A stretch of 52,547 bases of DNA, taken from the NCBI GenBank assembly GCA_028683785.1, contig JAQUHC010000001.1:1-52547 (forward strand). The letters run 5' to 3'. The DNA comes from Oscillospiraceae bacterium (GTDB lineage Bacteria; Bacillota; Clostridia; Oscillospirales; Acutalibacteraceae). This document shows, piece by piece, positions 14,857 through 50,332 of this stretch. Both the position numbers and the translations under genes were made by a program. Under the pieces are notes generated by a model. The model did no database searches. It saw only the letters and a program-made list of their open reading frames with translations, and was not told the origin of the DNA. Every line of letters starts with the position of its first letter. Position 1 is the stretch's first letter.

Positions 14857-14949
14857 ATGAAGGTAGTAGTGGTAAAAAGCCCTAAGATTATCGGGGGGGT
14901 ACTTCGTAAAATATTCGGAATAAAAAAACAATATTACATAGAACATTGA
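14857..14949 (+). CDS. spoVM: stage V sporulation protein M-like 30-aa peptide
   Basis: GGAGGAG RBS lies 6 nt upstream. MKVVVVKSPKIIGGVLRKIFGIKKQYYIEH aligns with B. subtilis SpoVM MKFYTIKLPKFLGGIVRAMLGSFRKD, with MK, K7, PK, GG, R17 and G21 conserved. It sits downstream of thiN, as in Bacillus. Confidence 0.7.
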   Translation: MKVVVVKSPKIIGGVLRKIFGIKKQYYIEH

Positions 14950-14963
14950 TTAGTACCAAACAA

Positions 14964-15055
14964 TACTAATTTAAAATAAACATATAGAAATATCATAATA
15001 ATAAGAAGATACATATTGACTTTGATATTATTTATGTTTATAAATTAAATCAGTA
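14964..15055 (+). repeat. AT-rich hairpin repeat, copy A (MITE-like family with TACTAA...TTAGTA ends)
   Basis: tactaatttaaaataaacatatagaaatatcataata...gactttgatattatttatgtttataaattaaatcagta. It is near-identical to copy B at 17982-18071. The two arms are reverse-complementary. Confidence 0.85.
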
Positions 15056-15151
15056 TCCGGAATAAAAGTGGCTGTTGCAAAACCAAGGTTGAGCATCAGC
15101 CTCTTTTATCAGTTTTTGGTATAATACAGGTTCCTAAAGGAGGGGAGCTTT

Positions 15152-17924: not shown

Positions 17925-17981
17925 ATGCTTATCACGCTTAATGAGATTGGTATTAGCCATCGGTTGAGTTTATGCTGCTTA

Positions 17982-18071
17982 TACTAATTTAAAATAAATA
18001 TATAGAAATATCATAATAAGAAGATATACAACGGACTTGGATATTATCTATGTTTATAAATTAAATTAGTA
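17982..18071 (+). mobile_element. AT-rich hairpin repeat, copy B (MITE-like), flanked by a perfect TTA/TTA duplication
   Basis: TTA at 17979-17981 and again at 18072-18074 flank TACTAATTT...AAATTAGTA. The right arm contains the last codons and the stop of the minus-strand gene 18061-18771. Confidence 0.75.
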
Positions 18072-18771
18072 TTACAACCATCATGTTGGGATATATCTCA
18101 TTTAATAAATCATCAGGATAATGCTCATCAAGAAATTTCTCAATACTGTTTGTGGGTGAAACACCAATCCGCCTTCTGCTTTGCCTTTCCAATGCCATGG
18201 CGGATATAAGCATATTGATCAACATAAAAATGCTTAAAACAACGGTCAATATCTTATTTATATATTTGGGTATACGGTCAATAAGTGAAGAAAGTCTCGG
18301 ATATATTTCTTTTACCCATATCAGCCCGAGCAACCCCCAGATAAAAGAATACATTATGTTTGTACGACCGTTAAAATTATATTGTGTATGGCTGTATTCC
18401 CAAGAAACCGTGCCAAATGCGAGTTCCTGACAAAAACTGCACAAATATTCAAATGCGCCGCCGATAACCGCACTCCCGAGAAAAATCCAGAGATCCCGCT
18501 TGTTCCTTAACCGCCTGAGACAAATGGTCAACAAAGCCGCCCCAACTCCATAAACAGGGTTAAACGGTCCGTATATTACTCCGACACGGCTTTCATATCG
18601 GCCCCGCATGATTATGCAGTACAGTGTTTCAAAAACGACGCCGATAAAACATCCGATGAGAAAGATCCAAAACAGCTTTGAATAGTTTAATTTATCGGTT
18701 GCTTTTTGCCGGTATTTGTTTTTGTTTTCCTTGACAAAAACCGGTTTACTCATTTTCATTTCTTTTTGCAT
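18061..18771 (-). CDS. multi-pass membrane protein of the putative ABC-transporter type IV (CmpB/DUF1113-like) family
   Basis: FWIFLIGCFIGVVFETLYC...GVIYGPFNPVYGVGAALL pattern. AAGGTGG RBS sits ahead of the ATG at 18771. The C-terminal ILI* is encoded by repeat copy B. Confidence 0.65.
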   Translation of the reverse strand: MQKEMKMSKPVFVKENKNKYRQKATDKLNYSKLFWIFLIGCFIGVVFETLYCIIMRGRYESRVGVIYGPFNPVYGVGAALLTICLRRLRNKRDLWIFLGSAVIGGAFEYLCSFCQELAFGTVSWEYSHTQYNFNGRTNIMYSFIWGLLGLIWVKEIYPRLSSLIDRIPKYINKILTVVLSIFMLINMLISAMALERQSRRRIGVSPTNSIEKFLDEHYPDDLLNEIYPNMMVVILI

Positions 18772-20116: not shown

Positions 20117-20617
20117 ATGCTTAAAGGCTTTGCTCCCATTGCATCGGATGATGCGCTTATATTAATACTCGGAACCATGCCGTCTGTAGCCTCTATACAA
20201 CACGGACAGTATTACGGTCACCCCAAGAATGCTTTCTGGCGAATTATTTTCGGCCTTTGGAACGAGGAACCCCCTCTTGAATACGAGCTGCGGGTGAAAT
20301 ACTTAAAGGAAAAGCGGATAGCCCTGTGGGATGTACTGAAAGGCTGTGAAAGGCAGGGGAGCGCAGACGCCTCGATCCGAAAGCCTCAGCCAAATGATTT
20401 TAATATATTGGCAGATAAATGCCCCAATTTGGAAGCGATTTTCTTCAATTCAAATAATGCGGCGGAATATTATAAAAGACTCGTAAAGCCGGATGTGTTT
20501 TATAACCTTAAAAAAACCGTCCTGCCCTCCACCAGCCCTGCTCGCGCTATGCTTTTTGAAAAAAAACAGGAGATGTGGATGCCGGTAAGGGAAGCGCTGG
20601 ATAGAATTTTAAATTGA
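20117..20617 (+). CDS. uracil-DNA glycosylase superfamily protein, DNA-deoxyinosine (hypoxanthine) glycosylase-like
   Basis: GFAPIASDDALILILGTMPSVASIQHGQYYGHPKNAFWRII matches the family-6 UDG N-terminal pattern as I recall it. Confidence 0.6.
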   Translation: MLKGFAPIASDDALILILGTMPSVASIQHGQYYGHPKNAFWRIIFGLWNEEPPLEYELRVKYLKEKRIALWDVLKGCERQGSADASIRKPQPNDFNILADKCPNLEAIFFNSNNAAEYYKRLVKPDVFYNLKKTVLPSTSPARAMLFEKKQEMWMPVREALDRILN

Positions 20618-20624
20618 TGTGAAA

Positions 20625-20671
20625 AGGTCTGTCAAAAAAGAGAAGTTACTCTTTTTTGACAGACCTTTTAT
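20625..20671 (+). terminator. rho-independent terminator
   Basis: An 18-bp stem, aggtctgtcaaaaaagag pairing with ctcttttttgacagacct, followed by TTTTAT. Confidence 0.85.
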
Positions 20672-27280: not shown

Positions 27281-27324
27281 TTTTAAAAAAGGGTGCTGAA
27301 AATGAATTCCATCATTTTCAGCAC
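27281..27324 (-). terminator. rho-independent terminator (minus strand) ending the HPr-like gene transcript
   Basis: A 13-bp stem, gtgctgaaaatga pairing with tcattttcagcac. On the minus strand it is followed by CCCTTTTTTAAAA. Confidence 0.7.
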
Positions 27325-27375: not shown

Positions 27376-27572
27376 TACTAATTTATACTAAATCCAACTA
27401 TAACTATTCCATAATTATCGCTCATGGCGCGTTCTTCCTATACTAATTTAAATTAGTATTAGGAACGCATCGCTCTATTCTGGAATGTTTTAGAATGGAT
27501 TTAGTATTAATTATAAACATGGATAATATCCAAGTTTATTATGATATTTTTATATATTATTTTTAATTAGTA
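27376..27572 (-). mobile_element. AT-rich hairpin repeat, copy C (reverse orientation, 15-bp internal deletion), split by a nested 121-bp insertion
   Basis: Segments 27376-27385 and 27510-27572, when joined, align end-to-end with the reverse complement of copy B. The right end overlaps the stop codon of the HPr-like gene. Confidence 0.75.
27386..27506. mobile_element. 121-bp palindromic element nested inside copy C, flanked by a TTA/TTA duplication
   Basis: Perfect 11-bp terminal inverted repeats, TACTAAATCCA and TGGATTTAGTA. The arms show imperfect complementarity throughout. The centre is a perfect 20-bp palindrome, ATACTAATTTAAATTAGTAT (27440-27459). TTA lies at 27383-27385 and 27507-27509. 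Confidence 0.7.
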
Positions 27573-27841
27573 TCAGAATCGGTTCCGTAAAGGTTTAGGC
27601 GGAAAAGCCTGCTTTCATCTTCGGGGTCGCTGCAGACGACGGTTGCTTCGCCGACATTGCCCCAGTCAACCGTACTTGACAGCGCAAGGAGTTGGGTAAG
27701 CCTGCTCTTGAGATTGAGGACGTCCCCCTCGGATGTTTTAAGTAACACTTCGCCTTTTGCGGTGGATGCAAATTCGATCAGCTTGTTGAATTCGAAATTG
27801 TGAATGGTAAAACCGGCCATATAAATCGCTCCTTTCAACAT
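27563..27841 (-). CDS. divergent HPr-like (PTS phosphocarrier fold) small protein
   Basis: TIHNFEFNKLIEFAS aligns with the HPr block GIHARPATMLVQTAS, VLNLKS with the Ser46 region KVNLKS, and GEATVVCSDPEDE with G.E.T....G.DE. An ATG at 27820 has the better RBS (AAAGGAG) but would remove strand 1. Confidence 0.45.
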   Translation of the reverse strand: MLKGAIYMAGFTIHNFEFNKLIEFASTAKGEVLLKTSEGDVLNLKSRLTQLLALSSTVDWGNVGEATVVCSDPEDESRLFRLNLYGTDSDTN

Positions 27842-46399: not shown

Positions 46400-46666
46400 T
46401 AATGCAATAAACGCATTGATAGAGAGAGTACCTCGTGTTTTTTCGTATAAGAGAAGGTTGTCATAGGCTGAAAGCAATCTGCGAAAAAGGCGGGAGAAGT
46501 TCACTCCGGAGCGGTAGGGCTGAAAATTTAGTAGGCTCTGACGGGTGACGCCGTTAAATGTCTTAAAAGTGTTTATTTATGCATATTGTTTTGCATACGA
46601 TGAAAATCAGGGTGGTACCGCGGAGGAATGACCTTCGTCCCTTTTATGGGGACGGGGGTATTTTTA
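46400..46666 (+). promoter_or_regulatory. T-box riboswitch leader, Phe-specific (UUC specifier)
   Basis: Stem I AGAGAGAGTA at 46421-46430. Specifier context GAAG-TTC-A, with TTC at 46500-46502. T-box sequence AAAATCAGGGTGGTACCGCGG at 46603-46623. The terminator ccttcgtccc / gggacggggg followed by a T-run lies at 46632-46666. Confidence 0.9.
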
Positions 46667-50170: not shown

Positions 50171-50243
50171 GCCTCTTGAAAAATTTGTATAAGTACAGTA
50201 TAATGTATTTATACATTTTAATTCTGAAGGAAGTTAAGGCATA

Positions 50244-50332
50244 TACTGATTTAATATTAATATATAGAAATATCTTTATATAAGTTATATAATAGGCTTA
50301 GGTATTATCTATGTTTACAAATCAAATTAGTA
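50244..50332 (+). repeat. AT-rich hairpin repeat, copy D (diverged centre)
   Basis: The 5' 32 nt and the 3' 33 nt or so match copy B with a few mismatches. The central loop region differs. The flanks are ATA and TTA. Confidence 0.8.

Follow-up and report, generated by a model that had tools for sequence, protein, structure and literature searches.

The DNA studied here is a 52.5-kb window (52,547 nt, GC 44.5%) of contig JAQUHC010000001.1, which belongs to an uncultured member of the Oscillospiraceae (assembly GCA_028683785.1); positions given below without a locus name are positions in this window. It harbours short, AT-rich, hairpin-forming repeats with TACTRAT…ATYAGTA ends, which the initial annotation had described as an unnamed family of non-autonomous mobile hairpin repeats. 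Our analysis supports this description. The repeats are insertions without coding capacity, their orthologous sites in relatives are empty, one copy (B) is bordered by a 3-bp duplication of its target, copies are nested within one another, and a sister element occupies a different site in the closest relative examined. [quoted passage not shown] Both the mobilisation in trans by such an enzyme and the lack of a function of their own are what we infer from the sequences compared below.

Repeat copies and their termini

The first family (family 1) is represented by four copies, all of which had been reported in the initial annotation and are indeed present. Copies A (14964-15055, 92 bp), B (17982-18071, 90 bp) and D (50244-50332, 89 bp) lie on the plus strand, and the composite copy C (27376-27572) lies in reverse orientation, on the minus strand, its outer family-1 part (C-outer) consisting of 27376-27385 and 27507-27572. 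Family-1 copies are thus distributed together with two other elements within 52.5 kb, and measure 73-92 bp, the range for all elements being 73-121 bp. A and B, which had been called nearly identical, share 89% identity over their full length. The alignment also bears out that D has the arms in common with the other copies and a different loop. The GC content of A, B and D is 14-17% against 44.5% for the window, so that the elements are, as previously remarked, far more AT-rich than their surroundings.

The two arms of each family-1 copy are reverse-complementary, in agreement with the imperfect stem that had been proposed, and they pair at 24-26 of 32-33 aligned positions. Pairing is perfect only over the terminal 9-11 bp, and in B it takes the form of perfect 11-bp terminal inverted repeats, TACTAATTTAA and TTAAATTAGTA. 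The predicted structures are of moderate strength, with RNA fold z-scores on the plus strand of -2.4 to -3.7. Folding as DNA gives z-scores of -1.8 and -2.8; D does no better than shuffled versions of itself. The elements cannot code for protein, as had been stated: reading inwards from either family-1 end, stop codons occur at most 6 and at most 11 nt in for two of the frames, and 10-67 nt in for the third.

The conserved 18-mer TATTATYYATGTTTAYAA occurs exactly 4 times in the window. When up to three mismatches are allowed, 9 matches are found against 0.76 expected, and 9 or more were reached in 0 of 100 shuffles. Similarly, the tip TACTAATTTAA with at most one mismatch yields 10 matches against 2.07 expected, every one of them at an element end. 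These counts bear on the view that the repeats are artefacts of assembly, or intergenic DNA so rich in AT that stretches of it look alike by chance. Their very low complexity (14-17% GC) would suit such a view, as would the fact that two short-read contigs end inside B. However, the observed match count was never reached in the shuffles, the copies align end to end, and independent assemblies from several samples carry the same elements, so we regard the probability of chance or artefact as negligible. The assemblies of the organism that were compared number five, including GCA_041859895.1 (contig JBFLFZ010000001.1), GCA_028704865.1 and three Logan assemblies. They are about 100% identical over the parts of the window that they cover, with A present in four, B complete in one and D in three, and C in none of the loci fetched. 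The two contigs ending inside B are Logan contigs from different samples, and both stop at 18005, 24 nt into the element, which hints at a repeat or at heterogeneity.

The shared ends were examined in seven elements, namely A, B, C-outer and D, the element nested in copy C (C-mid), an element found in the relative L011, and an 18-bp remnant within C-mid; without the remnant, six full elements remain. They fall into at least three sequence families with TACTRAT…ATYAGTA ends, i.e., family 1, C-mid and the L011 element. All 12 ends of the six full elements start with TACTRAWT, and most of them carry a TAWAAC-like motif 14-20 nt further in. The arms of all six match at 24-27 of 32-34 aligned positions, with tips that are perfect over 9-11 bp.

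The flanks point to a duplication of three base pairs. In element orientation, the triplets to the left and to the right are TTA and TTA for B, TAA and TAA for C-mid, TTA and TTA for the L011 element, TGA and TCA for C-outer, ATA and TTA for D, TAA and TAG for the remnant, and CAA and TCC for A. A perfect TTA pair is therefore present in three of the seven elements (B, C-mid and the L011 element), the two triplets differ by one base in three more (C-outer, D and the remnant), and no pair exists at A. In every one of the seven, an A immediately precedes the element and a T immediately follows it. Since TTA makes up only 2% of the trinucleotides of the window, three perfect TTA pairs among seven elements are not due to chance. 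The pattern T-N-A fits 11 of the 14 flanking triplets and fails for both flanks of A (CAA on the left, TCC on the right) and for the left flank of D (ATA). The flanks as a whole fit a 3-bp T-N-A duplication that would have been partly eroded in older copies.

Insertion sites, nesting and the mode of transposition

Orthologous loci were compared in the relatives L011 (GCA_028706415.1; LigA 89% identical), L012 (LigA 82%), L163 (LigA 85%), L141 and L142. The check for presence and absence that had been suggested initially gave a positive result between species, as all four sites occupied in the window are found without the element in relatives.

The evidence is most complete for B. Its target-site duplication TTA lies at 17979-17981 on the left and at 18072-18074 on the right. 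On the minus strand of the host, the site reads GGTTG-TAA, then B, then TAA-GCAGCATAAACTCAACCGATGGCTAA, the second TAA being followed by GCAGC. Excision of B together with one TAA gives GTAAGC, which matches the element-free L012 and L163, and an open reading frame (ORF) that ends in …MMVVSSINSTDG and a stop codon. The precursor rebuilt in this way, …ATGATGGTTGTAAGCAGCATAAACTCAACCGA…, lines up over the junction with …ATGATGGTGGTAAGCGAAAGCTAA of L012 and with …ATGATGGTGGTAAATGAAATTAACTCAACCGA… of L163, which reads ATGATGGTGGTAAATGAAATTAACTCAACCGAATCA… there. The gene concerned is a CmpB-like membrane gene on the minus strand (18061-18771), whose last three codons and stop codon (…MMVV-ILI and stop) are now encoded by the right end of B. 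Its ancestral tail, …V-SSINSTDG followed by a stop codon, was cut off by B and is stranded at 17953-17981 on the minus strand. This tail is homologous to …MMVVNEINSTESSKR of P0243/L163 and to …MMVVSES and stop of L012, and its residues SSINSTDG match NEINSTESSKR of P0243. B has therefore replaced an 8-residue polar tail with ILI. Because the precursor aligns with the uninterrupted gene of the relatives, B landed in the TAA of GTAAGC and duplicated that TAA. On this reconstruction, B is proven to be an insertion with a 3-bp duplication inside sequence that is still coding in relatives.

The remaining sites are empty as well. At site A, L011 has the stop codon of the SpoVM-like gene, 7 nt and the same terminator, with no element. 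At site C, L142 has the stop codon, 28 nt and a terminator, again with no element. At site D, L141 encodes an identical IreB behind the same promoter and lacks the hairpin, the gap between pheT and ireB being about 92 nt there versus about 195 nt in the window. The reverse case was also observed: a 101-bp hairpin element of the third family, TACTGATTCC…GGAATTAGTA, with TTA on either side, stands between the terminator and yunB in L011, and the corresponding site in the window is empty. At this locus (L011:9086-9203) the 101-bp element is followed by a short tail of end-like hexamers (TTAGTA, TCAGTA) spaced by TTA or TAA, which may be relics of further insertions at the same spot. With respect to the gene at C, homologues of its 84-aa family end in …GTDxxK and a stop codon, and no reconstruction model of the ancestral gene end at C yields this usual ending.

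Copy C was found to be a nest of three levels. It had been reported as a reverse copy split by an insertion, and both statements stand; the inserted piece proves to be a nested hairpin element in its own right, 121 bp long and from another family. Removal of 27386-27506 and of one TTA/TAA leaves a 73-bp family-1 copy (C-outer), which can be aligned with A, B and D from one end to the other. Compared with these, C-outer has an 18-nt deletion in the loop, where 15 bp had been given originally, and two single-base gaps. The inner element, C-mid (27386-27506, 121 bp; 100 bp without its own insert), represents the second family, has the ends TACTAAATCC…GGATTTAGTA and folds strongly into a hairpin (z = -7.0 as DNA). 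Its insertion point lies 10 nt in from the end of C-outer, and TTA flanks it at 27383-27385 and at 27507-27509. The third level is an 18-bp perfect palindrome, TACTAATTTAAATTAGTA (27441-27458), equal to two 9-bp family-1 ends joined together, which sits at the tip of the C-mid hairpin with CTA and TTA as flanks. This palindrome may be what is left of a family-1 copy after a deletion between the direct repeats TTAAA, which occur in both arms. Another contig appears, by arithmetic only, to start inside C-mid (at about 27482); the breaks in B and C-mid could be assembly breaks induced by repeats or AT bias, or could reflect strain heterogeneity.

Other models of the duplication were considered and rejected. 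A 2-bp TA duplication leaves 4 extra nt at the nested site in C and does not restore GTAAGC at B. As for a model without any duplication at C and B, only the 3-bp model restores both the family consensus and the sequence of the relatives.

The structure of these sites also bears on a different mode of movement, in which the repeats would be IS200/IS605-type or REP-like (RAYT) elements, i.e., single-stranded hairpins moved by HUH/Y1 enzymes and inserted 3' of TTA without duplication, the second TTA being the element's own end. Judged by sequence alone, a 3-bp duplication and a terminal TTA inserted after TTA are inseparable. Single-strand transposases are known to favour hairpin or inverted-repeat structures, and here each element folds as a whole into a hairpin, the 18-bp remnant occupies a hairpin tip and C-mid is placed within the inverted repeat of another element. 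On the other hand, the repeats have true terminal inverted repeats, perfect over 9-11 bp from the very tip, while the ends of IS200/IS605 elements are asymmetric, with subterminal hairpins and different cleavage motifs on the left and on the right. Moreover, the same trinucleotide stands on both sides of three independent elements, the family-1 hairpins are weak, with D as DNA no better than shuffles, and 62 kb of sequence showed neither a Y1 nor a RAYT gene. Single-strand transposition is thus an improbable explanation of the repeats.

Gene context and the question of a host role

All ORFs of at least 150 aa in the window are housekeeping or sporulation genes. The initial annotation had placed each copy just after a stop codon, which holds for A and does not hold for B and C, which supply stop codons themselves, or for D, which lies in a 5' leader. 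A is located in the 3' untranslated region (UTR) of the SpoVM-like ORF, with the stop codon (14947-14949) 14 nt upstream and a terminator hairpin (15070-15101) 14 nt downstream. This intrinsic terminator (15070-15108, plus strand; GGCTGTTGC…GCATCAGCC and then a T-run) is conserved in L011 and is not part of the element. As it lies beyond A, A would be transcribed within the 3' UTR. A has no clean duplication, its 3-nt flanks being CAA and TCC. In this region, the 14 nt to the left of A (14950-14963), which include a solitary TTAGTA right after the SpoVM-like stop codon, and the 6 nt to its right (15056-15061) have no counterpart in L011.

The end of C encodes the last two codons and the stop codon (…GTDSD-TN and stop) of the gene 27563-27820 on the minus strand, and C stands between this stop codon and a bidirectional terminator hairpin (27293-27324). 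The gene had been considered HPr-like; it has no Pfam domain and belongs to a well-conserved hypothetical family of about 84 aa, for which 301 homologous clusters were returned, and it sits between lepA and hrcA. D is found in the 5' leader of ireB, 73 nt past the stop codon of pheT and 33 nt before the ireB start codon (50366), with a promoter-like site (50176-50204, 11/12 match) upstream of it; its flanks are ATA and TTA. D also carries a 10/12 sigma-70-like match (TAGAAA, 17 nt, TATAAT) at 50265-50293, directed towards ireB. This is a consensus match only, whose -10 hexamer comes from D's own loop, and it could serve as a second promoter.

Two further features of the window were noted. A T-box leader (Rfam RF00230, 120.6 bits) is present upstream of pheS/pheT at 46407-46645, which is expected and ordinary. 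At 20622-20669, just past an ORF ending at 20617, the 21-bp arms AAAAGGTCTGTCAAAAAAGAG / CTCTTTTTTGACAGACCTTTT of a perfect inverted repeat enclose a 6-nt spacer; this structure is probably a bidirectional terminator.

Given such positions, the repeats could be understood as cis-acting RNA or DNA signals kept by the host, for example as palindromes that bind proteins, as RNase III sites or as stabilisers of 3' ends, a role that would count for more than their spread. Three of the copies (A, C and D) are situated within transcribed UTRs, and the arms are far better conserved than the loops among the four copies. Furthermore, the palindrome TACTAATTTAAATTAGTA is found, together with extra TACTAAT half-sites, in an operator-like position of two prophage-like contigs. 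However, the relatives that lack the element at the four sites keep the same promoter and terminators, and the orientation is not fixed, since B is antisense to the gene that it overlaps and A, C and D are sense. The four copies offer no compensatory changes, and conserved arms are expected for transposase-binding ends anyway. In addition, the Rfam covariance-model search, carried out at the gathering threshold and at E values up to 10, gave no match overlapping any copy. No terminator features were seen either: the terminator scan called none of the copies, and genuine terminators adjoin A and C, which speaks against the terminator role implied earlier. The prophage match amounts to one independent event and fits coincidence. 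Taken together, we find a host-kept signal to be very improbable.

The prophage site was noted in its own right. The two contigs are homologous IMG/VR entries of 29-30% GC, next to a tRNA gene, in which the exact 21-mer TTATACTAATTTAAATTAGTA and TACTAAT half-sites occur upstream of the first gene (L145:1434-1466 and L146:1095-1139). This site looks like an operator, and its identity to the 18-bp remnant is probably a coincidence.

If the repeats are MITEs, a transposase encoded elsewhere would bind the shared ends, that is the TACTRAT tip and the TAWAAC-like motif about 14-20 nt in, excise or copy the element and insert it at T-N-A, mostly TTA/TAA, with duplication of 3 bp. The number of families with these tips that have been active in this uncultured Oscillospiraceae lineage would be at least three. 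Their landing sites appear to be AT-rich spots at gene ends, including other copies, as for C-mid in the end of C-outer and for the remnant at the tip of the C-mid hairpin. The copies would now be passive passengers in a 3' UTR (A), in a 5' leader (D) and at two gene ends (B and C). Given the early stop codons in family-1 ends, an insertion in the last codons swaps a short C-terminal tail without inactivating the gene, as in B and C, and this helps explain why such insertions were tolerated in two genes.

These observations have consequences for annotation, because in two genes of this MAG the C-terminus and the stop codon come from the end of a transposon, and one of the two has a stranded ancestral tail; unless the repeat is masked, gene callers and comparative analyses will misread them. 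With regard to genome evolution, the window is a compact and well documented record of MITEs at work in an uncultured Oscillospiraceae lineage of the gut or of fermenters, which comprises three families, nesting, a cleanly duplicated target and sites that are empty in relatives. Hardly any elements of this kind have been catalogued in the group.

Distribution and relation to known elements

Several results weigh against the proposed mobilisation by a DDE transposase. Four of the seven duplications are imperfect, none exists at A, and site A differs from L011 by a further 20 nt of flank that is unexplained. There is no sign of recent activity, given the approximately 100% identity of the five assemblies over the parts covered. 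No family-1 copy was found beyond the window in 9 kb of adjacent host DNA, and seven elements are known in all. Searches of large collections, each of which may or may not include the host genome, were equally unproductive: the pattern AAATATC-N(10-40)-TATTATYYATGTTTAYAA gave 5 chance matches without the ends, in unrelated phyla, among 185,579 species-representative genomes; both family-1 arms together gave 0 matches in the JGI metagenomes; and patterns of the family-1 arms gave nothing real in viral contigs. No transposase lies in the window, as had been noted before, and no transposase gene with TACTRAT ends was detected in the 9 kb past its right end. Finally, the TACTRAT tips are unlike GAACCTGTCTAGTATCT, the one inverted repeat of the IS1031 group that was compared.

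Other searches concerned the extent of the families. A viral-contig pattern running from end to end was discarded as unspecific, with at least 120 chance matches in coding DNA. A metagenome search with the C-mid ends TACTAAATCCA…TGGATTTAGTA gave 16 matches, none of them convincingly related; they are mostly longer, unrelated palindromes, because a palindrome needs only one 11-mer to match. On several contigs of one JGI metagenome (Ga0307982, Ga0222687; L148, L153, L154, L156, L162), an unrelated, GC-richer palindromic repeat family, CTGTTAGT-TACTAAATCCAGTCCCCCCTCGGGGGG…, was present, which matched only through a shared 11-mer; it looks like a MITE family of another organism. A blastn search of plasmid records with B, one of phage records with C and a literature text search for the terminal sequence all returned nothing significant, which, together with the Rfam result, agrees with the earlier impression that the repeat belongs to no named family. 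The more distant relatives L012-L015, L141, L142 and L163-L165 have no such elements, and the families appear to occur only in this organism and in the nearest of its relatives sampled. As regards other mobile DNA of the host, a group II intron reverse transcriptase and ISL3 and ISLre2 transposases, without TACTAA ends, are located 1-7 kb past the right end of the window (L136:12382-18739), and two other assemblies break at the start of that group II intron.

Among known systems, REP/BIME-RAYT elements and the PATEs of IS200/IS605 resemble the repeats in being extragenic palindromes with a short conserved terminal motif, often between convergent genes. They differ in that they are moved by HUH/Y1 enzymes and lack a target duplication or true terminal inverted repeats, whereas the repeats described here have terminal repeats and TTA on both sides. 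The Correia elements of Neisseria and the RUP elements of Streptococcus pneumoniae are bacterial MITEs that duplicate TA, and RUP is linked to an IS630-type transposase. Like the present repeats, they are hairpin-forming, non-autonomous repeats of about 100 bp that lie in intergenic regions or UTRs, are co-transcribed, and are present or absent between related strains. Their terminal sequences are unrelated, however, and their duplication is of 2 bp, in contrast to 3 bp here, where the TA model fails at B and C. The Rickettsia palindromic elements (RPEs) are palindromic mobile repeats tolerated inside protein-coding genes. The likeness lies in the palindrome and in the tolerance within genes, which here concerns the gene ends at B and C. 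RPEs are nevertheless in frame and translated as an extra peptide, while the elements of the window have early stop codons in two of three frames and replace a C-terminal tail only, and no sequence similarity exists between the two.

The closest parallels are found elsewhere. The IS1031 group of the IS5 family of insertion sequences (IS) generates exclusively a 3-bp direct repeat at 5'-TNA-3' (PMC12016507), and a TTA/TAA duplication is given for the Tourist/mPing MITEs of eukaryotes (PMC4561436). The repeats share with the IS1031-group and Tourist/mPing MITEs their short, non-coding and AT-rich nature, the terminal inverted repeats, the 3-bp T-N-A duplication that is mostly TTA/TAA, the preference for gene ends or UTRs, and the nesting. 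Tourist/mPing elements belong to the PIF/Harbinger superfamily, which is related to IS5. IS5 ends usually begin with GG or GA, and the TACTRAT tips differ from these. No IS5-type (DDE_Tnp_1-type) transposase with such ends was found near any copy, and any membership of IS5/IS1031 is putative. A bolder proposal, which we consider unlikely though conceivable, would make the TACTRAT-ended elements a MITE superfamily whose transposase stands outside the catalogued bacterial IS groups, e.g., a divergent relative of PIF/Harbinger/IS5 with TTA/TAA specificity. Such a superfamily would be confined to uncultured Oscillospiraceae and would prefer regions of TAA stop codons and hairpin tips, with ends that limit read-through and so make insertions at gene ends harmless. 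Should the partner transposase come to light, a usable new IS/MITE entry would be defined by the TACTRAT ends together with the TTA duplication. The understanding of how MITEs work is unchanged by these results, which will not surprise a specialist: the elements are of a familiar kind, and what is new is the family, or rather the three families, restricted to this lineage; no new kind of system is involved.

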